NCBI GenBank assembly: GCA_964573625.1
Contig: CAZNJU010000001.1
Coordinates: 673,510-737,509 of the forward strand
Source of the DNA: Candidatus Woesearchaeota archaeon
Lineage (GTDB): Archaea; Nanobdellota; Nanobdellia; Pacearchaeales; GW2011-AR1
DNA: 64,000 nucleotides
Direction: 5' to 3'
A model generated the notes under the pieces. That model was not told the DNA's origin. It saw only the letters and a list, made by a program, of their open reading frames with translations, and made no database searches. The position numbers were made by a program, and so were the translations under genes. The first letter of the stretch is position 1; every line of letters begins with the position of its first letter. Shown one piece after another: positions 5,258 through 33,585 of the stretch.

Positions 5258-5863
5258 ATGGTCAAATCCACTTCAAAGATAACGCCCAAATATTGGTTTT
5301 ACATTGGTCTCGTTGTTTTTCTTCTCAGCAGTCTTGGAAGTGGCATAGGGACGTTCGATACAAAATATATTGGAGACAGCATGTACGGTATTGTGGATTG
5401 GCTCGCTGCATGTATCCCCTATTTCTTTTACGGAGCGCTTGCAGGATTACTTATTGATGCATACCTCTCAAAGAAACGCAAGATTATGTTCAATGTACCT
5501 CTCTGGGCGTATTACACGATTGCATTTATCATAATAAGTATAGGAGCGCTTGCAATACATCTTTCAAGCCTTGCATGGAGAGATATTATCTTGTACTTCT
5601 ACTTTCCATTCCATTATGCAATATTCTTCCCCGGGTACGCATATATGGCTTTGCCTGCCAACCCACTATCAGCAACAATCACGCTAAAGCTCACGTTAGA
5701 TATCCTTATGCTAGCCATCTTCTCAAAATGGATCTATCTTAGATTTCAAGCGATAAAGGGAAACGCATCGCGAAGACAGCAGATAATAGAAAAATATGCT
5801 CTAGGAATAATCTTTTTCGTTCTTACTGTGGGAATGTTTCTCTGTGCTAATAATCTGAACTAG
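5258..5863 (+). CDS. hypothetical polytopic membrane protein
   Basis: 201 aa, multiple TM helices. Confidence 0.4.
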   Translation: MVKSTSKITPKYWFYIGLVVFLLSSLGSGIGTFDTKYIGDSMYGIVDWLAACIPYFFYGALAGLLIDAYLSKKRKIMFNVPLWAYYTIAFIIISIGALAIHLSSLAWRDIILYFYFPFHYAIFFPGYAYMALPANPLSATITLKLTLDILMLAIFSKWIYLRFQAIKGNASRRQQIIEKYALGIIFFVLTVGMFLCANNLN

Positions 5864-6266
5864 CGGCTCGTTTCATAAAGAAATTAGAAATACTCCAAAG
5901 TCCCGGTCCTGTCAAAGAAAGAGCTAACGTAGCAATAGTCAATCCAAAGTCACGCACTCCAATCTCCGTAAACCCTATTGAGAACGTTATTCCAGCAAGA
6001 TGCATTCCCAATAGAAACGCAGCGACGCGTGAAAAAACACCGAGTGAAAGGAGCAAGGCGCAAAATAGTTCAAATGCTCCGTTAAGAAGAACAAATTTTA
6101 CCGGCTCAATAGGCACGACTGAAATAAACTGAGGAAGCCAGCCTACAAACGTCTCAGGATGGCTAAGTTGACTTATTCCAAAATAAAAAAATACAAAGGC
6201 AATCCCAAACCGAAGAATAGCTACACCTGCTTGAAAACGAGGATCTAGTTTTGTTTCTAAGGCCAT
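5847..6266 (-). CDS. DoxX-family 4-TM membrane protein
   Basis: 139 aa, 4 TM; paralogous to 24686..25081 (shared IS.SLGF..V.VRDFGL..ATLAL.L.GP..WS motif block); 10-nt overlap with upstream cyt-b5 gene. Confidence 0.55.
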   Translation of the reverse strand: MALETKLDPRFQAGVAILRFGIAFVFFYFGISQLSHPETFVGWLPQFISVVPIEPVKFVLLNGAFELFCALLLSLGVFSRVAAFLLGMHLAGITFSIGFTEIGVRDFGLTIATLALSLTGPGLWSISNFFMKRAASSDY

Positions 6267-8350
6267 GTTATTGTCGCTCCAAAGTCTCCAATATAATAGT
6301 TTCCAATCAAGTTTCGCGCAGTGCCGCTATGTGAGTGTCCACCAGCATTGCCTACAAAATAATTGGTCGACTCATTACCGCATCTGAAAAGAATAGCATT
6401 TCTACCGCCTGGATGACTATTTGTTATATATGTGCCAGGTATAGCATAGAACTTGCCAACGTTAGTAGTTAGATTAATCATAAGCCAGCAATCGTTAAGT
6501 GTGTGATGTTGTCTCAAAGTGCTTATGTTAAGAGTCACAAGGTTAGAGGATTGCACACTAAAGCTCACCGATTGACTGGAGGTCATAACATTATTAGATG
6601 AATTCTGACATCTGACATATGCAGTCATGCTAGCTCCATTAGTCAATCCTGTAATGGTGCCGCCGTGAGTCGATCCAGAAGCAGTAACCATGGTATTGCC
6701 CATAGTAGCATATGTCTGATCAGTGTTACTCCATCTGCATGTGCCCACGATGTTAGTCGTTACATTCAGAGCGGTGCTCGTTGTGCCAGAAGGGAAGGAA
6801 GCCCCATTGCCCGGATTAATAATCGTGGCAGAGATGTTTACTTGTGGTTGGTTTCCGCCCGTATTCACGACGCCAATCTTTACTGTTGAACTGGAAGTCA
6901 TAACATTATTAGATGAATTCTGACATCTGACAAACACGGTAACATTGTTTCCGTTAGTCAATCCCGTGATTGATCCACTATGAGTTGTCCCTGTAATAGT
7001 GCTTAACGTTGCACCCATACTTGAATACGTCTGATCAGTGTTACTCCATTTACACGTACATCCCAGATTTGTCGATACACTAAGAGGCACGCTGGTTGTT
7101 CCGGCAGGGAACATCGTGTCGTTAGCAGGGCTTGTGATTGTGGCGCTGATAGAAGTCATTTGTTGTACGCTAAATCTCACTGATTGACTGGAAGTCATAA
7201 CATTATTAGATGAATTCTGACATCTGACATATGCAGTCATGCTAGATCCATCAGTTAATCCACTAATCGTTCCCACATGCGAAAGCCCGTCAGAGGTAGT
7301 CAGTGAATTGCTCATAGAATCATACGTCTGATCAGTGTTACTCCATTTACACGTACCAATAATGTTCGTTCCCACGTTCAAAGAAACACTTGTAGTACCC
7401 GAGTTGAATGCCTGATTAGAGCTAGGTGAAGTAATAGTTGCGGAAATATTCGCACCGGGAGTCGTCGGAGCAGTCTCATTAGAGCAGTACGTACCAACTT
7501 TATAGGTAGCAAGCAGTGAACGGGCGGTTGATGAGTGCGTTCCTCCGGTTCCACCCTTCGTATTAAACGCGTTAGTAGCTTCAGTGCCACAATTATCTAC
7601 AATAGCTTGAATTCCTCCCGGATGGATAGAAATGTAACTTGATACATCATAGACATTCGAATCAATGAGAAGCCAGCAATTGCTCTGACTGTTATGGCTA
7701 ACAAGTGCAGATCGAGATATACAACTCGAACCACTACTCGAACTTGATTGATTACCAAAGAAAGAGTAAACTCCTTCTACAATACGAACTACACCGTTAG
7801 AATAATAGACTGTGTATGTTCTTCCATTAGATCTTACAATAAACGTATAGCTCGTGACCTCATTATTTGGCAAAGATTCCAAAGCCTGTCGCAAACTATC
7901 AGGAATATCATAGTTGTTTGCAGAATTCAACGAGAGATTTCCAAGATTAACAAGTGTCGTACCAAAGTTACCTATAAAGAAACTGTTAAGGAGGGTATGT
8001 GCATACGCGCTATGCGATCCGCGTCCACCTTTCGTGTTAAAAAGTTGGGTTGCATCGATGCCGCAAGCCTCACGTATCGTTTGCTCCCCTCCCGGGTGTA
8101 GCCGGATGTAAGAAGTGATATCATAGACTTTATTATCAATGATTGTCCAGCAGTCATTTTGACTATTATGTCTTGCTACGGTTGTAGAATCAAGGGACTG
8201 TCCGGTTGTAGTGTTAAGCAAGGTTACATTCTGACTTACAGTTGCAGAAGAATCCCAAGAATAGTAGGTAACGCTCACTACTACTAAAGCAAGAATGAAT
8301 ACTATCGTGAGCTGTTCAAGCCACCCCTCAGTCAGTTTCCGTATGTCCAT
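6257..8350 (-). CDS. membrane-anchored extracellular protein with three cytochrome-b5-like heme-binding domains and three tandem Ig-like repeats
   Basis: N-terminal signal anchor; three copies of the ...CW.IID.KVYDITSY...HPGG..I...CG.DAT..F....GG..HS.A.....IG pattern (cyt b5 family HPGG motif); three about 100-aa repeats ending in YVRCQNSSNNVMTSS. Confidence 0.7.
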   Translation of the reverse strand: MDIRKLTEGWLEQLTIVFILALVVVSVTYYSWDSSATVSQNVTLLNTTTGQSLDSTTVARHNSQNDCWTIIDNKVYDITSYIRLHPGGEQTIREACGIDATQLFNTKGGRGSHSAYAHTLLNSFFIGNFGTTLVNLGNLSLNSANNYDIPDSLRQALESLPNNEVTSYTFIVRSNGRTYTVYYSNGVVRIVEGVYSFFGNQSSSSSGSSCISRSALVSHNSQSNCWLLIDSNVYDVSSYISIHPGGIQAIVDNCGTEATNAFNTKGGTGGTHSSTARSLLATYKVGTYCSNETAPTTPGANISATITSPSSNQAFNSGTTSVSLNVGTNIIGTCKWSNTDQTYDSMSNSLTTSDGLSHVGTISGLTDGSSMTAYVRCQNSSNNVMTSSQSVRFSVQQMTSISATITSPANDTMFPAGTTSVPLSVSTNLGCTCKWSNTDQTYSSMGATLSTITGTTHSGSITGLTNGNNVTVFVRCQNSSNNVMTSSSTVKIGVVNTGGNQPQVNISATIINPGNGASFPSGTTSTALNVTTNIVGTCRWSNTDQTYATMGNTMVTASGSTHGGTITGLTNGASMTAYVRCQNSSNNVMTSSQSVSFSVQSSNLVTLNISTLRQHHTLNDCWLMINLTTNVGKFYAIPGTYITNSHPGGRNAILFRCGNESTNYFVGNAGGHSHSGTARNLIGNYYIGDFGATITWP
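6520..7450 (-). repeat. three tandem about 300-nt intragenic repeats (Ig-like domain repeats)
   Basis: near-identical DNA cores gtcataacattattagatgaattctgacatctgaca at 6582, 6896 and 7194. Confidence 0.8.
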
Positions 8351-8429: not shown

Positions 8430-9029
8430 ATGGAGCTCATGATATTTATTTACACATTTATAGCAATTTTCGCTCTTAATTTGATACCTATTTTTGGCCC
8501 TCCTACATGGATGGTTCTTTCGTTTATTACACTCACATACGCAATTCCTTCACTCCCTCTGTTCGTAATCGTTGCGCTATGTGCTTCAGCATTAGGAAGG
8601 TCTACCCTTACCTATTTTTCAGAAAGAATTTTAAGAAATCGTTTTTTAGGTCGAAAATATCGGGAGAATGTAACTCACCTGAAAAAGCATCTTGAAAAAA
8701 AGCCCTTGACAACATCGACCATTTTCCTCTTGGAAGCATTTACACCCTTGCCTTCAGATCAACTTTTTGTAGCCTACGGTCTTACCGGACTCAAGCTCAG
8801 ATATGCTATAATTCCGTTCATCATTGGAAGAGCATTCACCTATAGTTTTTGGGTTTTTCTTGCCACAGAGACTGCAAAGCAATTAGGAGCTAGCTCGATA
8901 AGCAATTTATCCTTTCTTAGTGGACCGTTTATAGCTGCAGAGTTAGTAATTCTCTTCATAGTCTATTTATTTGTAAGAATTGACTGGGAACAGTTCATTC
9001 TACATCATACCATACGCTTTATTCACTAG
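8430..9029 (+). CDS. DedA/VTT (SNARE-associated)-like membrane protein
   Basis: 199 aa polytopic membrane protein whose proline-containing re-entrant segments resemble the DedA family; weak. Confidence 0.4.
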   Translation: MELMIFIYTFIAIFALNLIPIFGPPTWMVLSFITLTYAIPSLPLFVIVALCASALGRSTLTYFSERILRNRFLGRKYRENVTHLKKHLEKKPLTTSTIFLLEAFTPLPSDQLFVAYGLTGLKLRYAIIPFIIGRAFTYSFWVFLATETAKQLGASSISNLSFLSGPFIAAELVILFIVYLFVRIDWEQFILHHTIRFIH

Positions 9030-15223: not shown

Positions 15224-18200
15224 ATGAAAAGAGGGACAACAATAGGCATTATCTTACTGGCCTTTGTTTTTTGTACTCTGGCACCAAGCCCTACTGAGGC
15301 GCGTTCTCAATTACCTCTAATGAAAACAAATAGTATTAGTTTTTCAGATCAATTGAACTTTGGTCAACTACCTCCGTTATCATCTATCTACACGCCTAAT
15401 ATCACTGAACCACATGGTGATCAATATAATATTACATTTACTGCTCCCTCTCCTCGATTTTTAACACGTATTCCAGAACCTCCAACAGGCGAATATACTC
15501 TCTTAGATGATGCTTGTAGCACTTCAGATATCGCCAATTATACGCCTACTCAAATTGTTGATTATGTTACGACTCATTCGATGGACTGTCTTTATTTTTT
15601 CTGGACATATGACGCAAACACGCTGAGTGTTTTCACCGATGCGCATATTCAAGCAGCCCTTAATGCCACTGAAGATCGTGTCGCCACCTATGACGGAACA
15701 AACAATCAAAGTATACAGCAGCTCATATTTTACATACGAACGGCGTATTATCACGGATCATATCATTCAAGCCCGAATTTTACTAATGCTACGCTTCTTC
15801 GTACTATCGACGTGTATAGAGAGTTTGCAAACACCACGTATTTTAACAACGCAAGCAGCGATGCAGAGTTAACGCTCTATCATTGGATAAACGGTGCTGA
15901 CGCTGCAGGCGTTTCGTACGCACTTGTGCCGCAACTTAACACAATCATGCGAACGTTCATGAATGAGACTAATCGATGGTCTCGGCTGACGCAGTTGTTC
16001 AATATCTATTCAATAGAAGGGTATTCTATTCCGCGAGGACTCTATATTGGACACCCTAATCGAACACAAATGATAAGTTCAATGCAACAACAGAATGTAA
16101 GTGGAATACTCGAAGATATTGCGTTAAACGATACCATGATTCCAACCGCAGGTACCTCTCTGATAAACAATGCAATCGGCAGTTTAGGATATATGATTAC
16201 CGTTTCAGAATTCAATGCGAGTTCAGTAAATACGTTAACAAAAGTGATTAATCATTACGAGCCACTAACTCTGCCATATCTTTGGGCAGTATACATGCTT
16301 GATTATTATAATAACTGCCATACTGCAAACGAGAATGTAAGTATCTGTCTTTCAAATCTAACCGCTCCTATTTTTAGCGTCGCCTTACCAAATAACTACT
16401 CGTTTGATAACGGAACAAGAGTATTCATAACAGCTCTTAATTATTCTGACGTTCAATCGCTCTACCATGCGATTAAGCAAGTTGAATGGGAATTTGGAAG
16501 AGTCGCAGGAACCGTACCGGTAGTTGGAGATAATAATAGTGTTCTCACTATGTACATTTACGGTTCTCCAACTGACTACGCGCTATACCAGCCCTTTCTA
16601 TTTGGTCTAGGAACGAACAATGGAGGAATTTACATAGAACAATGGGGCTCTTTTTTCAGTTATCAAAGAACAACAAGTGAAAGTTTCTATACCTTAGAAG
16701 AATTATTGCGTCATGAATACACGCATTACCTCGTTGGAAGATATATTGTTCAAGGAAACTGGGGAGAAGTCCCCATATATGATAATCAACGCATGACTTG
16801 GTTTGATGAGGGGATGGCTGAATTCTTTACGGGGAGTACTCAGAGAGACAGTGTTAAAACGCGAAAGACGCTCGTTCAATTAATCGCGAGTGATGGTACT
16901 AGATTAACGGTAAGCGATGTATTCAATAGTTCAAGTTATAACAGTTTTACATTTTACCGTTACGCAGCCTTATTTTTCAACCACCTCTATACCAACGATC
17001 TGCAACAGATGTTCGATTTTATTGACACTGTAAAGGCGGCAAATACAACAAGATTTGACGCATATGTTCTATCGTTAAGAACAAACGCAACGTATGAATC
17101 AAACTATCAATTATTTATTAACAACACAGTAGGAAATGTTTCTTCACTGCTTAATCCCTCTACCGATTTCCCAAGATACCTAAATACTACTTCCATTTCC
17201 GCAATACAGGCAGCGTTTAGACAGACTACTTTAGGATCAGGGGCTAATTGTTCAGCCCTCTATAGTAGTTCTGCAAACGCACGTTTCAATTGTACAGGCC
17301 AACTTACAGACTCAGTCACAAACGCGTCTAACAGAGTAGCTGCATGGCGAATTTTTGATGCAGCTCTTAACAAGATAATTAATGAAACATTAAACAGTAC
17401 GATTAATGTAACATATACTAATTTTAGAGCTATGAACTGTAAGATGGACAACATTACATTCGTCACAGTCAGTAGTTCAGTCTACCCTAAAACAAATTAC
17501 TCTTGTGAAGGCCCTCTGGCGTTTAACACAGAACTTGCACAATGCTTCGACGAAATAGACAATGACGGTGACGGGTTTATTGATTACGGAAATGATACAG
17601 ACTGTTCAAGCAATTATGATACTAATGAAAGCCACTCTCCTCCAGATTTCCCAAGTGTAACGATTGTATATCCTACAAGCAATATATATGTTTCAGTAAT
17701 AAGCGCGCTTAATTATACAGTAGAAGACAATAGTATACAATCATGTTGGTATTCTACTGATCAAGGCGTAACAAACACGACAATAACTTGTGGTACAAAT
17801 GTAACAGGCCTCACATCATCTGCAGGGACAAATACTTGGCAAGTGTATGCCAATGATAGTGATGGTAACACAAACTCTAGCACAGTCTCATTCACGTATA
17901 TCCCTAACGCGCTCACCGTCGGAACATGTACTTCTCTTAACCAGACAAATAAAACCTACGTGCTTAATGCGAGTATTAATCCGACCGAGGATAGTCCATG
18001 CATAAACATCACTGCCCAAAACATAACATTTACCTGTGGAAGATACACTATCTATAATGTAACCCATGCTAACACGATTATTTATTCAAATCAGTTCAAC
18101 ACAACTATTATTAATTGTAAAAATCTAACCGGAGGATCGGGACTTGCAAGCACCGGAATTAAATTAGTTTCAGCAAATTACTCTTCCATAATTAACGTAT

Positions 18201-19900
18201 CCATATTATATGCTCGATTTGGGTTTAACGTTGGCACGACAGACGTTGTTTCAATAATCAATAGTAGCGCCTCAGCAGGAGTCGACAGTGGTGTTAGCGG
18301 AACTCCGTCAAACTCAACATTTAGAGGCAATACGTTGAGCTATTATTCCAGAGGATACTCAATTACCGGAACGAACAATACATACGTAAATAACACAGTT
18401 TACGGAAATACACAAGGTTTCGAATCAGGAGGTACAGCAAGTCGTTATTATAATAATACGCTACTCTCTAACACAAACGGATTTAGAATAACCGTAGGAG
18501 ATATTATTGTAGAAGATAGCTATTTCTATAATAATACTTATGGTTTTCTTCTCACTACTGATTTAGATGTAAATATCTCAAGGACGATTATAAACTCCTC
18601 AAGATCAGACGGGATTGCAGCCCAATCATCAGCAACGACTGCTCGAATAAACTTAGTGAATGTATCCTTCATCAATACAACAGGCTATGATCTTAATATA
18701 TCTGGAACATACAATAATTCACGATTCAATGATACATCAATAAATAGATACATCTTCTCTTCTTCTGGAGGAATATATTCATTTAGTAAATCAGGAGCAG
18801 GTAATATCAAATTCCTTCAGAGCATCAATGGATCAGGAAGCAATCTGAGCTCAAACTTAAATATCTCTTTCAATCTCATCAACATCAATGTTACAAGCAA
18901 CCCTGGATTGAACAGGAGTGCAAACATCACGTTTTACAACATGCCTGGGACATTTGTCAATCCTCGAATATTCAAGGACGGTTCTAATTGTACTTCTTGC
19001 TACAATTTTACTTCCTTAAATGCTGCCACTGTAACGTTTAACGTAAGCAATTTTGGAAATAATTTCACCATTCGTGGAGACAACATAGGTCCAATCGTCA
19101 ATATCACGTATCCTGCAAACACATCATATTCTTCAGGACCCACGGAACTCAATTATACGTTAAATGATACTGACATCCAATCATGTTGGTACACATTAGA
19201 TAGTGGAGTCACAAATATAAGTCTAACTTGTGGTACAAATGTAACGGGCCTCACATCATCTACAGGGACAAATACTTGGCAAGTGTATGCCAATGATAGT
19301 CTAGGCAATACTAACTCAAGCAACGTAACGTTCTTTGTAACTACTTCTGGAGCGAGTGGAAGCAGTGGTGGCGGTGGCAGTAGTTCAAGTAGTGGCGCAG
19401 GCGAAGCGTCTGCGTATGAAATCCCTGATAGCGTTCTTACCGAAGGATATGCTGCGTATGTCTCAGTTGGAAGCATTCTTAAATTCACATTAAGAAATGA
19501 TAATCATAGCATCCGAGTAATTTCATTCACTGAGAAGAATGCAACAATTCTCATTCAATCTGATCCAATTACGGTAATTATTAACCGCGGAGAATCAAAA
19601 CAAGTAGACATTGATAAAGATGGAAAAGAAGATATTATGTTAAAATACGAGTCGGTAAGCAATGGTAAGTTATTTTTATCAGTTCAGAAAGTCCAAGCGG
19701 CAATCGAAAAAGTTGTTGATCGCGCATCGCCCCCGATAGATATCGCTACAAAAGGTTGTATAGAACCATCATGCCCTTCTTCTGCCAAAGGTTTACTTAT
19801 TGTAGTATTGATAGCATGTCTGACAGGAATAAGTTTCTTTATTGCCTGGTACAGTCGATTTAGATCAAAGAGAAGAGTTCTCATGGGATTTGAAAAATAA
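15224..19900 (+). CDS. giant (1558 aa) cell-surface glycoprotein with collagenase-type (M9-like) zinc metallopeptidase domain, Ig-like repeats, parallel beta-helix repeats and C-terminal TM anchor
   Basis: signal peptide; [11 protein letters not shown]...[21 protein letters not shown] (HEXXH plus downstream Glu, closely resembling the clostridial collagenase catalytic motif); very many NxS/T sequons; duplicated about 50-aa module; PbH1-like N.T..N repeats; G/S linker then TM plus RSKRR tail. Confidence 0.7.
   Translation: [1558 protein letters not shown]
17785..17860 (+). repeat. 76-nt core, copy 1, duplicated 1440 nt downstream with 2 mismatches (intragenic)
   Basis: aacttgtggtacaaatgtaac(a/g)ggcctcacatcatct(g/a)cagggacaaatacttggcaagtgtatgccaatgatagt; flanks are much more diverged. 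Confidence 0.85.
19225..19300 (+). repeat. 76-nt core, copy 2
   Basis: see copy 1; same reading frame. Confidence 0.85.
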
Positions 19901-20791: not shown

Positions 20792-21328
20792 TTACTCAAG
20801 CCACGGATGAGCTTTTACAAAAGAGTGATGTCTCCACCAGGTGCCAAGTCCAATACGACGACCTGCGTGCACTAAAATAAACGAAACCATCAGAACAAGA
20901 TAAATAAGATGGTCATCAAGAAGAGGATTATTTTCTGGAGGAAATACCGCAGCCCACATCAAAAAGAGCATAACTGCTCCGGAAACGCTCGCGATATCAA
21001 CAAGTACTCCTAAGATGAGAGCAAGACCGATTCCTAGAAGTCCAAGCATAAATATCCAATCAACAAAAGCGTATCCTGCAAGTGATTTGAAAAATGGTGC
21101 AAGAGGACCACTTGTTGCAAACGTGAGAAATCCAGTCGTAGGACTTCCTCCTTGCAACCAGGCATTCTTACAAAGGAGTTGAATTCCTGCATCGGTATGA
21201 CATGTAGCATATCCTAACCCAATAAGTTTGTCAAAAAAAGCCCAAAGAAAAATAAGTCCCAGACAGATACGAAGCACAGCCCAAACATACGCTGTTGGTC
21301 GCGAAATAAAACGTCTCTCTTTAACCAC
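20792..21328 (-). CDS. DoxX-family membrane protein
   Basis: 178 aa, 4 TM, RI.LG..FLW.. N-terminal pattern. Confidence 0.55.
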   Translation of the reverse strand: MVKERRFISRPTAYVWAVLRICLGLIFLWAFFDKLIGLGYATCHTDAGIQLLCKNAWLQGGSPTTGFLTFATSGPLAPFFKSLAGYAFVDWIFMLGLLGIGLALILGVLVDIASVSGAVMLFLMWAAVFPPENNPLLDDHLIYLVLMVSFILVHAGRRIGLGTWWRHHSFVKAHPWLE

Positions 21329-21366
21329 GAAGAATATAGGAAAAGAACGCTTTTAAAGATTTAGTA

Positions 21367-21759
21367 TCAGGCTTCTGTCTTTCGTGCAAACAATGGCTTG
21401 TAATGACTCCACGTATGAACGATTACATACACTTGCAAAACAATTAAGATAGCCATCATCACAAAACTCATAAGACTAGGCGCAAGTATGATATTGAACA
21501 ACAACACGTTTACCATAATCGGCGTAAGAAGAGCCATGGAGAACGGAACCCACTGATTGAAGACAAGCATAAGCCCGATAAGCGTCTCGCAAATCCCTAC
21601 AAAAGGTATCATATATCCTGTAGCTCCAAGAGCGAGGAGAAAAGCCATTCCAGCACTAGGCAAGGTAGGTGAAGGTAACGGTAAGAACTTAGTCACTCCA
21701 AAGAAAATAAATGAAAGTCCCAGTAAAATGCGTACAATTGTGTATAATGTCTTCCCCAT
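21367..21759 (-). CDS. DoxX-like small membrane protein
   Basis: 130 aa, 4 TM, in tandem with 20792..21328. Confidence 0.45.
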   Translation of the reverse strand: MGKTLYTIVRILLGLSFIFFGVTKFLPLPSPTLPSAGMAFLLALGATGYMIPFVGICETLIGLMLVFNQWVPFSMALLTPIMVNVLLFNIILAPSLMSFVMMAILIVLQVYVIVHTWSHYKPLFARKTEA

Positions 21760-21798
21760 TTCAAAAATAAACTAATATGATTTATAAATCATTCGGTT

Positions 21799-22671
21799 TT
21801 ATGCGATTACACATGATAAAATCGCTGATTTACAGGCGCTAGAACAGCACGAATGCATTTCAACATCGCATTCAGGACAAATACATGTCCATTTATTACA
21901 AGTAGGATTTGGACAGTCACCACATAAGTCACACGGTTTATTGCAATGCATACAAGAGGTTATCGGCTTCGCATTCTGATCGATTCGTGAAGTCATTCGC
22001 TTATCAAAGACGAAGCAACTTCCTTCCCACACAGTATTAGGAAATTCCTGACAGAATGTAATGATCCCTCCATGAAGCTGACTCACATCTTTAAAACCTT
22101 GTTCAATCATGTATGCCGAAGCTTTCTCACACCGTATTCCTCCAGTACAATACATGACGATTTTCTTGTCTTTCTTGTCTTCCAGTTTTTTCACAAAATC
22201 AGGGAATTCTCTGAAGTTAGTAGTATCTGCGGTAACTGCTCCCTTGAACTTACCAACACGAGACTCATATACGTTCCTTGTGTCGAGAATAATCGTGTCC
22301 TTATCATCATAAACCTCGAGAAATTCCTTAGGCGTTAGGTATTTGCCTGTTTTGCTCATATCAAGTTGCTTGTCCATTCTGATAATCTCATTTTTTACCT
22401 TCACAATCATCCTATTGAACGGATGATGCGTCCCACGTTCTTCTTTAAACTGTATATCTGAGAAAAGGGCATCTTTGCGTAATTCTTCCTTATATTGTTC
22501 AATTTGTTCTTTAGTACCTGAAACTGATCCATTGAGACCCTCTGTAGCAACGAGTATGCGTCCCTTAATTCCAAGTTTTTTGCAAAAATCAAGATGGTTC
22601 GCACTCCAAGACTCAGGATTTTCTACCTGGGCAAACTTGTAAAATAAAAGTATGTGTACATCGCGTTCCAT
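21799..22671 (-). CDS. trhO: tRNA uridine(34) hydroxylase TrhO (UPF0176 rhodanese-domain protein) with Cys-rich C-terminal extension
   Basis: ILLFYKF...GIKGRILVATEGLNGSVSG N-domain; rhodanese Cys loop YCTGGIRCE; C-term CMHCNKPCDLCGDCPNPTCNKWTCICPEC. Confidence 0.8.
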   Translation of the reverse strand: MERDVHILLFYKFAQVENPESWSANHLDFCKKLGIKGRILVATEGLNGSVSGTKEQIEQYKEELRKDALFSDIQFKEERGTHHPFNRMIVKVKNEIIRMDKQLDMSKTGKYLTPKEFLEVYDDKDTIILDTRNVYESRVGKFKGAVTADTTNFREFPDFVKKLEDKKDKKIVMYCTGGIRCEKASAYMIEQGFKDVSQLHGGIITFCQEFPNTVWEGSCFVFDKRMTSRIDQNAKPITSCMHCNKPCDLCGDCPNPTCNKWTCICPECDVEMHSCCSSACKSAILSCVIA

Positions 22672-23412: not shown

Positions 23413-24000
23413 ATGGACTTTGAAAAAATAGTTATGTCGCGTCATGCGGCAAGAAAATTCGATGGTAAAAAGATAGATGAAGCTAAAGTTGAGAAACTTC
23501 TAGAGTTAATACGATATGCTCCTTCATCATATAACATTCAGCCATGGGCTATTAAAATAATTTCAGATCAGACTATCAAAGATAAATTAGCTCCTGCTGC
23601 ATGGAATCAGCCTCAAATCACTACCTGCTCACATCTTCTCGTCTTCTGTGCCAATACGGACATTGTGTCACATATTGACATGCTTGAGAATCAACTAAAG
23701 CAAGCAAATCTGCCTACGGAAGTAGTCGGAATGATGCGTAACTTCGAAAAAGGAATGAATCCTGACCAAAAGAGGAGCTGGGCTCAACGTCAAGTATATT
23801 TAGCGTTGGGAAACGCGCTTAATGGTGCTAAAGAACTAGGTTTTGACTCATGTCCTATGGAAGGATTTGATCCGAAAGCATTCGCAGAAATCCTCAATCT
23901 GCCCCAAAATATCATCCCTACCGCTCTCTGCACAATAGGATATACCTCAGATACTGTGCGTGCAAAGATGCGCCTGGATAAGAAAGATATACTTATTTAA
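23413..24000 (+). CDS. NAD(P)H nitroreductase family protein
   Basis: MSRHAARKFDGKKIDEAKVEKLLELIRYAPSSYNIQPW typical nitroreductase N-terminus. Confidence 0.8.
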   Translation: MDFEKIVMSRHAARKFDGKKIDEAKVEKLLELIRYAPSSYNIQPWAIKIISDQTIKDKLAPAAWNQPQITTCSHLLVFCANTDIVSHIDMLENQLKQANLPTEVVGMMRNFEKGMNPDQKRSWAQRQVYLALGNALNGAKELGFDSCPMEGFDPKAFAEILNLPQNIIPTALCTIGYTSDTVRAKMRLDKKDILI

Positions 24001-24281: not shown

Positions 24282-24689
24282 ATGAATAAATTTGGAGCAC
24301 TGATTATTGTTGTTATCGCTGCATTTGCACTTATTGGAGTTGCCAGATATACAGGTTATGCTGTTGCACCTATTACCGATCAACCTTCACCTTCGGTAAA
24401 TTCAAGCGGAGGCAATACACCTGCAAGCGTCCCTACAACACAACCGTCCTCTTCAATAACTTTAGCTGAATTAGCAAAACATAATTCAATGAACAGTTGC
24501 TGGGTCTCATACCAAGGGAATGTGTATGACATAACCTCATTCTTACCAGTACATCCGGGATCGCCCCAAGCTATTCTTCCATATTGCGGAACTGCCACGG
24601 AGTTTACTCAGGCATTCACTCAACAGCACGGAACTTCTCAGGTAAGGAAACTGAACAGTAAAGGAATCTTAATGGGTACTCTCGCATGA
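24282..24689 (+). CDS. membrane-anchored cytochrome-b5-like heme-binding domain protein
   Basis: N-terminal TM; HNSMNSCWVSYQGNVYDITSFLPVHPGSPQAILPYCGTATEFTQAFTQQHGTS matches the cyt-b5 family pattern; 4-nt overlap with downstream DoxX gene. Confidence 0.65.
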   Translation: MNKFGALIIVVIAAFALIGVARYTGYAVAPITDQPSPSVNSSGGNTPASVPTTQPSSSITLAELAKHNSMNSCWVSYQGNVYDITSFLPVHPGSPQAILPYCGTATEFTQAFTQQHGTSQVRKLNSKGILMGTLA

Positions 24690-25081
24690 AATCTGAAGAA
24701 TACGGCAAAATACTTCTAAGAATTTCATTATCGCTCGTATTTCTTTGGTTTGGATTTAATCAAATTTATGCTCCCGGAGAATGGATAGGATATGTACCCT
24801 CATTCCTTACATCATTTTTCTCAGCAAACACAATAATTTTATCAAATGGTATATTTGAAGTCGTACTAGGGCTTATGCTTCTGACAGGAATGTATGTACG
24901 CTTTTCAGCAGCTCTTCTCGGCCTGCATCTTATAAACATCTCCTTTTCTCTCGGGTTTTCAGCAGTAGCTGTGCGTGATTTCGGTCTTTCACTTGCGACA
25001 ATTGCTCTATTCCTGCAAGGCCCAGACGCCTGGTCTCTTGACGCATATTTTACGAGAAAGAAGAGTCAGCATAATTTATAA
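24686..25081 (+). CDS. DoxX-family 4-TM membrane protein
   Basis: paralog of 5847..6266. Confidence 0.55.
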   Translation: MKSEEYGKILLRISLSLVFLWFGFNQIYAPGEWIGYVPSFLTSFFSANTIILSNGIFEVVLGLMLLTGMYVRFSAALLGLHLINISFSLGFSAVAVRDFGLSLATIALFLQGPDAWSLDAYFTRKKSQHNL

Positions 25082-25102: not shown

Positions 25103-25708
25103 GTGGGTTACGCATTTGTCTATGAAGCATCTAATCATTACAAAATAAAAGTAGCTATAGGTCTTCTTCTTTTTCTTGCGCTCTTCCTCGGAGTAACCAT
25201 CATTGTATATACTGTTGCGACAAGCTACTCGAGTGAGCATTCGTTTCTCACTAGCTTCGTCTTGACTATTCAGAACGAAATTATCAATTTGACTCCTATT
25301 GGGCTATTCTATTCCTCATTTCTCGGAGGAATATTTATTGTGCCCTCAGCAGAAGAAATCGTTTTTTATCTCGCATTACTTAAAGGAAATCCCATAATTC
25401 TTAGCATTGTGCTTGTAAACCTAGGACATTATGCTTCACAAGTAGTCAATTATTTTCTTGGCCTCAAAATAGGGAAGCTCATCGTTCCATTAATTTCAAA
25501 AAGAAAAATATACAAAGCCCGTCGATTTGTAAACAAGTACGGCCAGTACGGCGTCTTTATATTTAACGTTACTCCGTTGCCTGCTCCTCTTCTAACCTTT
25601 GCATTAGGAATAACGCGCTACAACAAATACCGTCTATTCTTATTCACCATTGCCGGAACGATATTAAAATACGCGATTATTGCAGGAGTTTTCGTACTGA
25701 TCCACTAG
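25103..25708 (+). CDS. DedA/VTT-like membrane protein
   Basis: KYGQYGVFIFNVTPLPAPLLTFALGITRY resembles the DedA signature segment. Confidence 0.45.
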   Translation: MGYAFVYEASNHYKIKVAIGLLLFLALFLGVTIIVYTVATSYSSEHSFLTSFVLTIQNEIINLTPIGLFYSSFLGGIFIVPSAEEIVFYLALLKGNPIILSIVLVNLGHYASQVVNYFLGLKIGKLIVPLISKRKIYKARRFVNKYGQYGVFIFNVTPLPAPLLTFALGITRYNKYRLFLFTIAGTILKYAIIAGVFVLIH

Positions 25709-27658: not shown

Positions 27659-30112
27659 CTAAAAAACAAGAAAACTCACACGAGTCGTCGTTATTCCATA
27701 TCCTTCTCTGACACGTCGTCTTTTATATCGTTTTAACATAATCAGTGAAATAACTCCTATAACAATTACAATTAAGCCGATAATTATTACATAAGAAGAA
27801 ATTCCTTTCTTGAATAAATTATCTGTCGTTGCAGTTTCATTAGATTCTAAATTTGTGGAAACACTTTCAGCGGGAATAGTAGCTGTAGAAATGTCTTGAA
27901 TAAATATTGAAGCTAATCCTGCAACCATGCCATTATATTCGATTTTCAAATCAGGGTTAGAGTCCCCTGTCAAATCAACAAACATAGGAACGTCTTTAAC
28001 TAATTCAAGAATTGTCGGAGTCGATCGAAGTGTAACTTTCGCGGTTGTTGGCGTATAAGAATTAAGAGTTAGATTATGTCCTTGTCCCAAATAGCTAAAT
28101 CTGTATACATCTCCAACGCGAAGATCATGAGAATATCCTTTCTTCAATGAATTGGCATCAATATCATGAATCGCAGAAGCTCCTCCACCGCCACCCCCTC
28201 CTGAACTTCCTCCTCCTGAGCTACCCCCTGAGCTAGTAGAAGCAGTGTAAAATAATGTGTAGTTCGTTTCGTTAAAAGAGCTATGCATAGTATCAGTAAC
28301 AAAATAGTTCCATGAAAAATTACCATCATATGGCAAAGTTACCGAAGTTGTCGCATTATCGCTTGTCCCGTTCAAACTAGAAGTGGTCTGACTAATTAAA
28401 TCGCCTGTTGAATTCCATAAATATACGGTGGCGTTAATCAAAGGGTATTCTGAAGTAAATGATCCTTGGAATCCAACCGGACTACTTGAGACACTTGCAT
28501 TTGCAGAAGGGCTGTTGAGAGATATTCCTAACAGAGACTGCCGTATAGTCATAAACCAGTCAGGAGTTTGATTCGTGGCGGAAGCATTGTTAGTAACATT
28601 TGCAAAAGCAAAGAAAGTATATTCTGAATTAATCTCACCCGTGGCGTTAACCCAAAAAGTCACGATCTGCGATTCTCCTTGATTCAAAGAAATGTTTATT
28701 GGGTTGCTACCGTTAGTATAAAACGGTGTAGCTCCCGTCGTATTAGAAATAAGGGTTTTCTGAGGGTGCGTGACGTTGCCAAAACGATAAAGATTAGTTC
28801 CGTCTGAAGCATAAATGTATCCATTTGAAGCAATCATATTGTTAAGAGAACTGTTTTTAGTAATAACGTTGCTTATATTAGAAGCGTTGAGTTGATAACT
28901 TCCTATAAATACAGAGTCACGAGTCACGAGAGGATTATGGTTCGCTCCTGAGAGACCAGTAGTTGTAAAATTAGCAATCTGCTTAGTTACGTTAGAGGCA
29001 TTAACTTGATAGACAAGGCTGTTTCCCGACACATAGAAATAGACACACCCATTACCTATCCCTATAGAAGAGCTAAAGCTCTTAGATATAGAAAAGTTAG
29101 CAAACCATATACTGATATTAGTTGCGTTCACCTGTACAAGAGTCATATTCGAATTTGAGCCTCCTGCTTCAGAAGCGAGATAGACATATCCTCCTGAAAC
29201 TACCGGATATGTGTAATGGGCAGGTGCGCCTGAGAAAGTAGTTCCCATACCAATAGTATTGTATGTCTGACTGACATTGGAAGCATTAAATTGAACTAGC
29301 GAAGTACCTGCGAAATAATACCCATTTTCATTATCTATAGCAACTGATCCAAATCTAGCCGTGCCGCCATTTGTCGAGTTAGCAATCTGCTGAGTAAAGT
29401 TAGAGGCGTTGAGTTGAAATAATGCAGACGGAGTAATAAGATAAACAAATTTATTAGAAACTACAAACGAGCCTCGAACAGTGGCAAGATTCCCTCCGCT
29501 AGCCATAGGAGTAGAGAAATTAGCAATCTGTTGTGTAACATTAGAAGCGTTCAACTGATATGAAACGTTTCCAGCATGGTTCACAACATATATGTATCCG
29601 TCAGATATAGCTGGCGTTGAAGTTGCCCCGCCAGGCAACGAAAAGTTAGCAATTAACTGACTAATATTAGAAGCATTAAATTGAAAGACTCCGCCTAGAT
29701 TAATATAAACATATCCATTCCATGTGATGGGATATGCAAAAGAGCTGAACGCCTGTACCGAAGGAATACTCGTGCTAACAATAGTCGTGTCAGAGATGTT
29801 TCCAGGCACAACTCCTGGATTAAACCCTGTACGATTCAAATACCCTGCTTGCATAGTCCATTCATTACTATTTGATTGTGAACTCCCAGCAACCGGGTCA
29901 AGACTAACAGTCATCGGGCCACATGTACCTACCGTGCAACTAACATTTAAAGTAACATTAAAGAACAAACTTCTTGGAACAGAAAGACTTCCTGAAGGGT
30001 AGAGGACATTAATTCCAATATTCTGCGCACTTACAAAACTAAAAAAAACACAGGTAATAATAAAAAATTCAATCCATAACCACCCTTTTCTCATAAAAGC
30101 AAGGAGTAGCAA
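27659..30112 (-). CDS. 817-aa cell-surface glycoprotein with seven about 42-aa QxNASN.TQQIANFS repeats (probable beta-propeller) and C-terminal G/S-linker, TM, KRYKRRR anchor
   Basis: signal peptide; periodic repeats; poly-Gly/Ser GGSSGGGSSGGGGGGGAS; C-terminal module homologous to that of 15224..19900. Confidence 0.6.
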   Translation of the reverse strand: MLLLAFMRKGWLWIEFFIITCVFFSFVSAQNIGINVLYPSGSLSVPRSLFFNVTLNVSCTVGTCGPMTVSLDPVAGSSQSNSNEWTMQAGYLNRTGFNPGVVPGNISDTTIVSTSIPSVQAFSSFAYPITWNGYVYINLGGVFQFNASNISQLIANFSLPGGATSTPAISDGYIYVVNHAGNVSYQLNASNVTQQIANFSTPMASGGNLATVRGSFVVSNKFVYLITPSALFQLNASNFTQQIANSTNGGTARFGSVAIDNENGYYFAGTSLVQFNASNVSQTYNTIGMGTTFSGAPAHYTYPVVSGGYVYLASEAGGSNSNMTLVQVNATNISIWFANFSISKSFSSSIGIGNGCVYFYVSGNSLVYQVNASNVTKQIANFTTTGLSGANHNPLVTRDSVFIGSYQLNASNISNVITKNSSLNNMIASNGYIYASDGTNLYRFGNVTHPQKTLISNTTGATPFYTNGSNPINISLNQGESQIVTFWVNATGEINSEYTFFAFANVTNNASATNQTPDWFMTIRQSLLGISLNSPSANASVSSSPVGFQGSFTSEYPLINATVYLWNSTGDLISQTTSSLNGTSDNATTSVTLPYDGNFSWNYFVTDTMHSSFNETNYTLFYTASTSSGGSSGGGSSGGGGGGGASAIHDIDANSLKKGYSHDLRVGDVYRFSYLGQGHNLTLNSYTPTTAKVTLRSTPTILELVKDVPMFVDLTGDSNPDLKIEYNGMVAGLASIFIQDISTATIPAESVSTNLESNETATTDNLFKKGISSYVIIIGLIVIVIGVISLIMLKRYKRRRVREGYGITTTRVSFLVF

Positions 30113-32505: not shown

Positions 32506-33585
32506 TTAGTTATTCCACATATCAACAATCAATTCAAGTTGTCTATGTGGGTTGTGCCAATAATCTGCTCTTCTATCTTTGAAAGGGCGTGGATGATGAG
32601 GTATTTCAAAGCCAAATGTTTTTTGAACATTTTCATACATAACTTGACGAATCTGAGGATTACTAAATCCAACTTCGTGTAAGTAAGCCTGTACCCATGG
32701 AAGCCAGGGCATGCCTACAATGCCAGAAGCATACGCTTCAAGTTTATCTTTATCTGTATGCGGTGCATGGTCTGTTTCTATCCAATCAATATGTCCCTTT
32801 CGTAAATATTCCAGCATGCTGTGCTGACTTTCAGGCTTTCGTAAAGGGGGATTCATCTTCCAGAGAACCCCATTTTCTTGCTGCATCAAGGTCCAGTCGT
32901 ACAAAAGATGATGTGGTGTAATTCCTGAGGTTATTTTCATTTTCTGCTTGCGAGCACCTTTTACTAATTCAACACTCATTGGAGAAGAGATATGTGTGAT
33001 GTGCAATGTTCCCTTAAATCCGGTAGTATATGCAAGAGCGATTTGATCTTTAACAGATTCAATTTCAGAAGCTTCAGGGCGCACTACACAAGAATGTGAC
33101 ACCGGAATCATTGGATTCCATTCTCTGTCTTTAATAAAATGTTGTTTTTCAGGATGAACTGCCAACACTCCTTCATACCCTTCTCTTGCTAAAGTCGCGT
33201 ATACATTATATTCATCTTGAACTTCAATAACTCCTAAATTATTAGTTGAATGTCCTGCATACATTTTGAAACCTACAAGGCCTGGACTAGTAACATGCAA
33301 ATTGCGCCGATTATAAACATCTACCGCTTTCTTAACCTGTTCAGAATCTTTTGTAAGCACCATGTAAACACCGTATGTAACTTCGGGAATATCTGCTTCT
33401 CTAGCAAGTTTAAATCGTTCATCAATAACCTCTTCAGTGATTCCAGGAGGACTAGTATTAAGCATATCAAAAACAGCATCAATACCTGTGTCACGAGCAA
33501 CCTCGAGACCATGCTTAACCGTTTCCTTAGCAGATTCGTTAAAATCTCGCAAATGAACATGAGGGTCAATAAACTTAAAGTCCAT
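32506..33585 (-). CDS. dihydroorotase-like cyclic amidohydrolase
   Basis: DPHVHLRD metal-binding motif at the N-term; amidohydrolase TIM-barrel His/Asp pattern (HAPH, DH). Confidence 0.65.
   Translation of the reverse strand: MDFKFIDPHVHLRDFNESAKETVKHGLEVARDTGIDAVFDMLNTSPPGITEEVIDERFKLAREADIPEVTYGVYMVLTKDSEQVKKAVDVYNRRNLHVTSPGLVGFKMYAGHSTNNLGVIEVQDEYNVYATLAREGYEGVLAVHPEKQHFIKDREWNPMIPVSHSCVVRPEASEIESVKDQIALAYTTGFKGTLHITHISSPMSVELVKGARKQKMKITSGITPHHLLYDWTLMQQENGVLWKMNPPLRKPESQHSMLEYLRKGHIDWIETDHAPHTDKDKLEAYASGIVGMPWLPWVQAYLHEVGFSNPQIRQVMYENVQKTFGFEIPHHPRPFKDRRADYWHNPHRQLELIVDMWNN

Follow-up and report, generated by a model that had tools for sequence, protein, structure and literature searches.

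At two loci, the window, by which we mean the whole analysed stretch of 64,000 nucleotides, carries paralogous copies of a surface module that is self-contained and has two components. In each, a gene for an anchored protein with cytochrome b5 domains is followed on the same strand by a gene for a small membrane protein of the DoxX family. The genes concerned, together with a neighboring gene of the first locus, are the following:

6257..8350, (-): gene of the 697-aa surface protein (ORF; three Pfam Cyt-b5 matches)
5847..6266, (-): DoxX A, 139 aa, the four-TM partner (ORF; Pfam DoxX)
24282..24689, (+): gene of the 135-aa single-domain b5 protein (ORF; Pfam Cyt-b5)
24686..25081, (+): DoxX B, 131 aa, a paralog of DoxX A (ORF; Pfam DoxX)
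5258..5863, (+): 201-aa multi-TM protein, a possible accessory (convergent; overlaps the 3' end of DoxX A)

The earlier note had assigned one architecture to both loci, and the open reading frames are found at exactly the coordinates that it claimed. The stop of the b5 gene overlaps the start of the DoxX gene by 10 nt in the first locus (ATGGCCTTAG) and by 4 nt in the second (ATGA). The overlapping genes are probably translationally coupled.

No family match was obtained for the 201-aa protein. Homologs with 28-36% identity occupy the same convergent position in three other loci (L036, L037, and L039), and a 196-aa gene takes the equivalent position in a fourth (L042). Synteny among relatives may be the sole cause of this recurrence. 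VTT/DedA-like proteins are encoded beside both window loci; they are not close paralogs and none is present at other loci, so we regard their position as coincidental. A nitroreductase gene upstream of the 24282..25081 locus is near the module in only two other loci, too few for a linked gene. An Rfam scan of the window gave no matches.

The b5 proteins and their DoxX partners

Both surface proteins belong to the cytochrome b5 family and carry the one or three domains that had been proposed from the sequence. Against PF00173 (Cyt-b5, cutoff 23.7 bits), the 697-aa protein matches in three stretches (E=2.3e-46, 156.1 bits) and the 135-aa protein has a single domain (E=5.7e-17, 61.9 bits). The two proteins also match b5 proteins in the PDB, with E-values down to 2e-16. 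From its N-terminus, the 697-aa protein is composed of a TM anchor, a first b5 domain, a PepSY-like spacer, a second b5 domain, three Ig/Fn3-like domains, and a third b5 domain, which is the most diverged of the three:

8264..8323, (-): N-terminal signal-anchor helix, residues ~10-29 (hydropathy scan; AF2 helix 10-29)
7967..8182, (-): b5 domain 1, residues 57-128, with H85 (HPGG), H113, and C67/C96 (best Pfam stretch; invariant columns)
7775..7906, (-): alpha+beta spacer, residues ~149-192, PepSY-like by secondary structure only (AF2)
7487..7717, (-): b5 domain 2, residues ~212-288, with H243 (HPGG), H272, and C225/C254 (Pfam; invariant columns)
6554..7450, (-): three tandem all-beta Ig/Fn3-like repeats, residues 301-599 (sequence repeats; AF2; Foldseek)
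6263..6544, (-): b5 domain 3, residues ~603-696, with H646 (HPGG), H674, and C621/C657 (Pfam; invariant columns)

In the AF2 model, the spacer consists of a helix (residues 149-159) and three strands, all of low-to-moderate pLDDT. It has no Pfam match, and PepSY matches for the spacer and for C-terminal domains of homologs stay below threshold (E=0.002-0.03); we therefore keep the label PepSY-like. The Ig/Fn3-like repeats comprise ~95-100 aa and two Cys each, and the region matches the tandem Ig/Fn3 arrays of PTPdelta, Sidekick, and titin (Foldseek E 1e-11 to 1e-9). The stalk of Ig-like domains suggested before is thus seen in the model as three all-beta domains of ~95 aa. Multi-domain homologs of this protein carry two to four b5 domains. 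The 135-aa protein is simpler, with a TM anchor, a Ser/Thr/Pro-rich linker, and one b5 domain (H91, H116, C73/C102).

All four b5 domains in the window retain the His of the HPGG/HPGS motif and the second axial His. H91/H116 and C73/C102 are invariant in an alignment of 20 sequences, as are H85/H113, H243/H272, and H646/H674 among nine multi-domain homologs. Membership of the MAPR/heme-steroid-binding class, in which ligation is by Tyr and the bis-His pair is lost (definitions of Tamarit et al. 2021), is rejected because both His are kept.

Several features support a location of the b5 proteins outside the cytoplasm. Each of the two window proteins has a single hydrophobic anchor, at its N-terminus, and many homologs have a lipobox-like GC and are predicted lipoproteins. 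Every window b5 domain has a Cys pair in common with periplasmic cytochrome b558, and natural fusions with DoxX, described below, have an extra TM helix before the b5 domain. N-glycosylation sequons give no evidence on location, since their number (16) is not above that in composition-matched shuffles (19.3 +/- 3.6).

The two small partners are DoxX-like, as had been supposed. Both score above the PF07681 cutoff of 23.6 bits (DoxX A, E=7.4e-10, 39.8 bits; DoxX B, E=5.5e-7, 30.6 bits), and the AF2 model of the partner is a four-helix bundle with a pLDDT of 90. They are paralogs with 38% identity (E=1e-32). Against the DoxD family of Pfam, DoxX B stays below the cutoff of 22.7 bits (E=0.0013, 19.2 bits) and DoxX A has no match, while some of the fusions score higher. 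A DoxX profile found no match among PDB sequences. Of the third tandem DoxX pair reported at 20792..21759, one half stands: 21367..21759 is a DoxX protein (Pfam E=7e-6) of a different subfamily (hhalign probability 66%), whereas the 178-aa membrane ORF at 20792..21328 has no Pfam match and an hhalign probability of 6%, and we reject it as DoxX.

In the partner subfamily, the interior of the helix bundle contains polar residues that are nearly invariant: R19, E66, and H89 lie mid-membrane, and N62 and R105-D106 lie toward the outer leaflet. An F-x-G-W-x-P loop also belongs to the conserved outer face. Among 149 representatives with pairwise identities of at most ~50%, the conservation of seven such buried residues, all polar or charged, is 91-99%. 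This polar core is missing from the unpaired DoxX paralog of the window, and its restriction to the partner subfamily favors a ligand or cofactor site over a passive anchor.

Conservation of the pair and natural fusions

Of 27 informative genome loci, 23 have DoxX directly downstream of b5 and on its strand. The same order is found in 3/3 further contigs with a small b5 protein and in 3/4 loci of the large variant, and in lookups starting from DoxX a b5 gene lies upstream in four of five. Most junctions overlap or nearly abut. Together with the fusions, these counts bear out the proposal that the b5-DoxX adjacency is conserved in relatives. Four b5 loci have no adjoining DoxX gene (L015, L025, L034, and L035), and one DoxX protein of the partner subfamily is without b5 (L005/L006).

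All-against-all clustering of the neighbors in 35 loci and the window revealed no conserved third gene; only b5 and DoxX are widely recurrent. In L007, the sole locus with a redox neighbor, the pair is immediately preceded by a cupredoxin gene. A ZnuA-type ABC system is found near the module only in L002 and L003, and no ABC importer is conserved.

At least six natural fusion proteins join DoxX to b5 in a single chain, in which a basic tail and one additional TM helix (TM5) link the two parts. Their DoxX-b5 order is opposite to that of the operon, so read-through artefacts are excluded. The hosts of the module are DPANN archaea and bacteria of the CPR/Patescibacteria, and we infer that it spread between the two domains by horizontal transfer. 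No paper linking DoxX with cytochrome b5 was found in the searched literature; the unit has apparently never been described before, in keeping with the view of the earlier note that the system is undescribed.

Possible functions of the module

The module may constitute a minimal membrane-to-surface redox conduit, a proposal that we put forward tentatively, as plausible if somewhat less than probable. DoxX would be the membrane-embedded redox partner of b5, and its polar core could accommodate a cofactor or a lipophilic electron carrier, such as a quinol or a similar compound that may come from the host. Single electrons would pass from DoxX to the b5 heme, which a flexible tether keeps at the outer face, and, in the large variants, onward through b5 domains on their Ig/Fn3 stalks to an external acceptor, for example Fe(III), O2, reactive oxygen species, or the surface of a host. 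They could just as well flow in the reverse direction. For DPANN and CPR cells, which ferment and do not respire, the module could provide a vent for electrons or a reductase outside the cytoplasm.

In favor of a conduit, the nearest solved relatives of the b5 domains are electron carriers (b5, flavocytochrome b2, and periplasmic b558). The redox context points the same way, with the cupredoxin gene of L007, the ferric-reductase-domain membrane proteins that accompany other b5 proteins in CPR genomes, and a Haloferax DoxX-family protein that rises under Fe(III)-reducing conditions. Against it, we know of no DoxX protein with a redox cofactor, and one conserved His is insufficient to ligate a transmembrane heme. 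The three Ig-like domains between the second and third b5 domains of the 697-aa protein put these too far apart for electrons to pass directly from heme to heme, unless the domains can swing. DPANN and CPR organisms are described in the literature as generally without quinone and heme biosynthesis and respiratory chains, and the 64-kb window (of a ~760-kb contig) contains no respiratory genes, which leaves the electron donor and the heme source of a conduit unexplained.

The earlier note named DoxX-family proteins as known quinone-interacting partners of redox enzymes. DoxD is the quinone-reducing subunit of the Acidianus TQO, and the DoxX protein MexG binds a quinolone according to the literature; these precedents concern other members of the family, and the DoxD score in the window is below the cutoff. 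In addition, the only solved structure with a DoxX fold is that of NACHO/TMEM35A (PDB 9h9e chain C), a non-redox membrane chaperone, so quinone chemistry cannot be assumed for DoxX.

A second reading is heme capture and relay, which we consider unlikely. The b5 domains would be surface receptors or hemophore-like carriers on stalks, and DoxX would receive, pass, or load heme. H89 would be an iron ligand and conserved Arg residues would bind the propionates, in the service of heme-auxotrophic episymbionts that take heme from their hosts. The polar core fits this idea, with one invariant His and several Arg within the bundle; the 4-TM heme importer HRG-1 likewise depends on a transmembrane His. 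Multi-copy heme domains spaced by Ig/Fn3 stalks find analogues in NEAT-domain arrays and in the bis-His hemophore HmuY, and a DoxX-family protein is encoded inside the hfp heme-uptake operon of F. psychrophilum. The carriers, DPANN and CPR, are reported to be without cofactor biosynthesis. Moreover, an exported b-heme protein needs heme outside the membrane, a need that would explain a dedicated 1:1 partner and overlapping genes. However, a bis-His site of the b5 type is classically a tight site for electron transfer, and the neighborhood of the module has no conserved gene for an energy-coupling transporter, a heme oxygenase, or a cytoplasmic heme enzyme. A use for imported heme in these cells is not evident, and the F. 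psychrophilum DoxX protein is probably of a different subfamily. A relay of the NEAT/Isd type is rejected, as the heme domains are b5 and not NEAT and there is no conserved ABC importer.

It is still less probable that DoxX is a passive partner that performs no chemistry itself. Like NACHO with receptor subunits, it would work within the membrane as an anchor or an assembly chaperone and clamp b5 by its TM helix or its lipid anchor, and the b5 protein would exchange electrons with unrelated partners or bind another ligand. The high conservation of seven buried polar or charged residues would be unusual for a mere anchor; the many b5 partners that are predicted lipoproteins would, once processed, lack a TM helix that could be clamped, and TM5 already anchors b5 in the fusions. 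That adjacency is coincidental or mere synteny, with b5 and DoxX not working together, is highly improbable: the loci in which one gene lacks the other speak for it, but the pair is kept across two domains of life among otherwise unrelated neighbors, with genes that overlap or nearly abut at most junctions, and six independent domain fusions and the cross-domain conservation effectively refute it.

DPANN archaea and CPR bacteria represent a large share of microbial diversity, and are described as non-respiring, cofactor-auxotrophic, host-dependent fermenters. A conserved heme b surface module that is seemingly shared by horizontal transfer is hard to square with this picture, and makes a testable candidate for the exchange of reducing power or cofactors with hosts. 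The broader idea of a domain-crossing, cofactor-minimal surface conduit specific to ultra-small episymbionts, which dumps electrons from fermentation onto hosts or minerals or takes host heme, is possible although doubtful. Electron dumping, if true, would amount to direct interspecies electron transfer by heme b and not by multi-heme c.

For DoxX, a large family whose biochemistry is obscure, the module would moreover supply a defined partner protein. Should the conduit or the relay be correct, this DoxX would be the first in its family with a demonstrated transfer of electrons or heme to such a partner. The natural single-chain fusions are ready constructs for biochemistry and structure determination, which makes the role of DoxX directly approachable.

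Comparison with known systems

Among DoxX-fold proteins, NACHO/TMEM35A is a eukaryotic ER chaperone with 15% identity and no heme partner. In Haloferax, a DoxX-family protein is 12.6-fold up under Fe(III)-reducing conditions. The TQO of Acidianus ambivalens (DoxDA) resembles the module in combining a DoxX-type membrane subunit (DoxD) with an outward-facing partner (DoxA). In the module this partner is a b-heme protein; the DoxD score is sub-threshold, and no DoxA-like gene adjoins either window locus.

Flavobacterium psychrophilum has an operon for heme uptake, hfp (hfpR-doxX-hfpY), that is regulated by iron. There, the gene for a DoxX-family inner-membrane protein lies between those for a TonB-dependent receptor of heme and a hemophore similar to HmuY. 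The operon is like the module in that DoxX and a heme-binding protein outside the cytoplasm are transcribed together. This protein resembles HmuY, however, and is not b5, and the system has a TonB-dependent receptor and belongs to a diderm.

Cytochrome b558 of Ectothiorhodospira vacuolata (PDB 1cxy) is like the window b5 domains in its extracytoplasmic location, its classical fold, and its HPG His and second His. It provides a prokaryotic precedent, and the earlier statement that b5 domains are normally cytosolic or ER-facing has to be qualified in this respect. The 135-aa protein matches it with E=3.8e-11 and both Cys of the pair aligned (CW ... [YW]CG), whereas the matches to a viral-encoded b5 (4b8n) and to yeast b2 include only the first Cys. 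In b558 the Cys pair forms a disulfide. This cytochrome is soluble and single-domain, with no reported DoxX partner. In contrast, the b5 proteins of the module have a membrane or lipid anchor and a DoxX gene as their companion, and they often carry several domains on Ig/Fn3 stalks.

The b5 classes of archaea and CPR bacteria have already been surveyed (Tamarit et al. 2021, bioRxiv 10.1101/2021.11.17.468889). In CPR genomes, the same survey describes b5 proteins coupled to membrane proteins with a ferric-reductase domain (pFre), for which a membrane redox complex was proposed. Like the window module, these CPR-specific operons couple the gene of a b5 protein with that of a membrane protein, and they do so in bacteria of ultra-small size. 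In them, b5 is of the MAPR-like or divergent classes and is paired with a ferric reductase domain that has two hemes (PF01794); the paper does not mention DoxX. PF01794 is absent from the scanned flanking proteins of the window and from the Pfam lists of neighbors on the looked-up contigs. The module described here instead combines a DoxX partner with classical bis-His b5 domains, and it extends to DPANN archaea.

The two b5–DoxX loci and their surroundings

ORF calling recovered the four genes of the two loci at the coordinates given in the earlier note:

5847..6266, minus strand: DoxX A, 139 aa, locus A (Pfam DoxX, E=7.4e-10)
6257..8350, minus strand: 697-aa protein, locus A, three Cyt-b5 domains (Pfam E=2.3e-46)
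24282..24689, plus strand: 135-aa b5 protein, locus B (Pfam Cyt-b5, E=5.7e-17)
24686..25081, plus strand: DoxX B, 131 aa, locus B (Pfam DoxX, E=5.5e-7)

These matches place the 697-aa and 135-aa proteins in the cytochrome b5 family and their partners in the DoxX family, as had been proposed. The stop of the 697-aa gene and the start of DoxX A overlap by 10 nt, and an ATGA overlap joins the genes of locus B. DoxX A and DoxX B are indeed paralogous (38% identity, E=1e-32). The suggested third tandem DoxX pair was retained only in part: the 130-aa ORF at 21367..21759 is a DoxX protein (Pfam E=7e-6, hhalign probability 66%), whereas the 178-aa membrane ORF at 20792..21328 was rejected as one (no Pfam match, hhalign probability only 6%) and has no family. 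The unpaired DoxX belongs to a different subfamily from DoxX A and B and lacks the conserved residues of the b5-partner subfamily (R19, E66, H89, R105, D106 and others). Both ORFs lie in an operon-like run (20792..22671, minus strand) with a UPF0176/rhodanese protein (TrhO-like, 290 aa). Rhodanese next to DoxX is reminiscent of the mycobacterial SseA–DoxX association.

VTT/DedA-like membrane proteins flank both loci: one (8430..9029, plus strand; a sub-cutoff Pfam VTT_dom match, E=8.9e-5) is transcribed away from the 697-aa gene, the other (25103..25708, plus strand; E=1.7e-10) begins 21 nt downstream of DoxX B. They show no close paralogy and do not recur in the other loci compared, and the flanking is probably a coincidence. 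A nitroreductase-family flavoprotein (23413..24000, plus strand), encoded some 280 nt before the start of locus B, might serve as a cytoplasmic electron donor. Homologs occur within about 2 kb of b5 modules at two further loci (L025 1764..2339 and L019 5514..5894; 53% and 23% identity), too few to judge.

On the plus strand at 5258..5863, a gene for a multi-TM protein (about 195-200 aa, no family match) is convergent with DoxX A and overlaps its 3' end. Genes in this position also adjoin DoxX partners of other large, multi-b5 proteins (L036 5361..5945, L037 5590..6174, L039 5038..5631, L042 3098..3688); homologs at 28-36% identity occur in three other contigs, in a fourth (L042) an equal-sized gene occupies the same position, and in L037 DUF1801 is syntenic as well. 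The gene may be a third component, or its position may reflect no more than synteny.

The window encodes archaeal aIF2-gamma and aIF5B, and its metabolism genes are of sugar-phosphate and FAD-oxidase type; no respiratory or heme-biosynthesis genes were seen within the 64 kb, and an Rfam search of it gave no matches. Two secreted or surface-looking giants, a 2066-aa protein with FG-GAP, PKD, fn3 and InlB-B-repeat domains (44571..50771, plus strand) and a 1558-aa M9 collagenase-like protease (15224..19900, plus strand), would fit an attached or predatory lifestyle. Two large ORFs (27659..30112, 817 aa, and 32506..33585, 359 aa; both minus strand) have no Pfam match at E<=1e-5.

Conservation and fusion of the pair

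The b5–DoxX adjacency is conserved in relatives. DoxX lies immediately downstream in 3/3 contigs with small, single-b5 proteins and downstream of three of four large-variant homologs; lookups from DoxX found an upstream b5 in 4/5. Scanning GTDB with one genome for each species gave 28 b5 loci, of which 27 are informative; in 23 of these, a DoxX-subfamily HMM identified a same-strand DoxX gene as the next one downstream, and most junctions overlap by 1-11 nt or leave a few nt between the genes. Chance adjacency is excluded. No third widely recurrent neighbour was found among the compared loci. A cupredoxin (Copper-bind) gene directly precedes the pair in a Woesearchaeota contig (L007 3010..3483), and a ZnuA/ABC/ABC-3 metal transporter directly follows DoxX in a metagenomic contig (L002 5177..7627).

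Carriers comprise Woesearchaeota, Pacearchaeota and Nanoarchaeota and, among CPR bacteria, Paceibacterota, Kaiserbacteria, Parcubacteria and other Patescibacteria. In a crude NJ tree, CPR small-type DoxX proteins form one clade nested among archaeal sequences, and partners of large b5 proteins (DoxX A, L023_2697) branch separately; this topology suggests inter-domain transfer and two old paralogous DoxX types. The CPR genome L023 carries both types, like the window, with the order DoxX then b5 in its second pair. Three module-bearing contigs (L015, L024, L025) are titled 'uncultured Methanosarcinales archaeon', and their b5 and DoxX group with DPANN; the titles could reflect mis-binning or naming, or an episymbiont co-binned with its host.

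Among 1.84 billion representatives, the DoxX-subfamily profile gave 1670 matches at E<=1e-3, 614 at <=1e-10 and 128 at <=1e-30. Six of the ten long matches are DoxX–b5 fusions (P0056, P0064, P0065, P0103, P0116, P0123), the 1615-aa P0116 combining DoxX with five copies each of the b5, Big_7 and fn3 domains. All six share one layout: after the fourth DoxX helix come a basic stretch, one more TM helix (the fifth), a linker of low complexity and b5. The basic stretch and the added helix predict a cytoplasmic position for both ends of DoxX and an external one for b5. Since the fusions put DoxX ahead of b5, opposite to the gene order in the operon, a read-through artefact is ruled out. Two further members carry other extracellular domains, NTF2-like (P0140) and PepSY-like (P0185).

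Features of the b5 domains and of DoxX

The axial histidines H91 (in HPG) and H116 and the cysteines C73 and C102 are invariant in an alignment of 20 small homologs, and every domain of nine multi-domain homologs (2-4 b5 domains each) keeps both pairs. Among proteins of solved structure, the nearest relatives are true heme-b electron carriers, including periplasmic bacterial cytochrome b558 (1cxy, E=3.8e-11), which shares both Cys positions, whereas the b5 of 4b8n and yeast b2 have only the first. This invariance and the b558 relationship assign the domains, at the sequence level, to the classical bis-His, extracytoplasmic prokaryotic type; with the axial pair retained, a MAPR-like class is ruled out. 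Each b5 protein of the window has a single N-terminal hydrophobic anchor, replaced in many homologs by a lipobox-like '..GC'.

The AF2 model of the 697-aa protein (mean pLDDT 68.5; domains mostly 70-85) comprises:

residues 10-29: TM anchor
residues 50-128: first b5
residues 149-192: small alpha+beta domain
residues 210-288: second b5
residues 301-599: three all-beta domains of about 95 aa, two Cys each
residues 603-696: third b5

In Foldseek the all-beta domains resemble tandem Ig/Fn3 arrays (E 1e-11 to 1e-9), which upholds the proposed Ig-like stalk. Sequons are no denser than composition predicts and give no evidence either way. A small PepSY-like domain ('YPGA.I...EDDGR'; best Pfam match sub-threshold at E=0.002) forms the C-terminus of many multi-b5 and fusion proteins (P0038-P0043, P0056, P0064, P0065, P0185); the 697-aa protein lacks it and has a similar-looking alpha+beta spacer between its first two b5 domains.

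Across 149 DoxX-subfamily representatives, R19 (97%), Q33 (90%), P45 (99%), N62 (92%), E66 (94%), R80 (91%), H89 (93%), R105 (99%) and D106 (98%) are conserved. Judged by helix position, E66 and H89 would sit close to the middle of the membrane, with R19 in the inner leaflet and N62 and R105-D106 nearer the outer one. A conserved polar chain of this kind, buried in the helix bundle, suggests a putative ligand or cofactor site.

Possible function and relation to known systems

The module thus consists of an extracytoplasmic b5-type protein with intact heme ligands and a dedicated DoxX partner, the two being physically coupled. Our preferred, though tentative, reading is a minimal surface redox conduit. 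In it, a lipophilic reductant or cofactor would bind DoxX within the membrane, and electrons would pass from DoxX to the tethered b5, serving electron venting or acquisition, or the reduction of Fe(III), O2 or reactive oxygen species outside the cytoplasm. The cupredoxin gene of L007 fits this conduit, as does the parallel offered by the CPR pairing of b5 with pFre, a ferric-reductase-domain membrane protein. Three points speak against it: no redox cofactor is known for DoxX, the carriers are reported to be without quinones and heme biosynthesis, and Ig spacers keep some b5 domains at a distance from one another.

A less likely alternative is that the module captures and relays heme, which DoxX would then handle. 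The iron-regulated hfp heme-uptake operon of Flavobacterium psychrophilum has a DoxX gene between those of a heme receptor and an HmuY-like hemophore, and Fe(III)-reducing conditions raise a Haloferax DoxX protein 12.6-fold; these leads are circumstantial and point in opposite directions. Less likely still is that DoxX is a passive anchor or chaperone like NACHO, a non-redox chaperone and the only solved DoxX-fold structure.

Both families are already known. Prokaryotic b5 proteins have been classified and CPR-specific b5/ferric-reductase-domain operons described, with no mention of DoxX (Tamarit et al. 2021). CPR genome papers treat 'cytochrome b5' as an orphan electron carrier of cells without a respiratory chain, and DoxX function is regarded as unclear, with reported links to stress protection and to quinolone binding by MexG. 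No publication linking DoxX with cytochrome b5 was found in the literature searched, and the module appears undescribed so far, in line with the earlier note, as do its fusions and its occurrence across DPANN and CPR. Its general logic, a DoxX membrane subunit with an outward-facing partner, is shared with DoxDA of the Acidianus thiosulfate:quinone oxidoreductase (TQO) and with the hfp operon.
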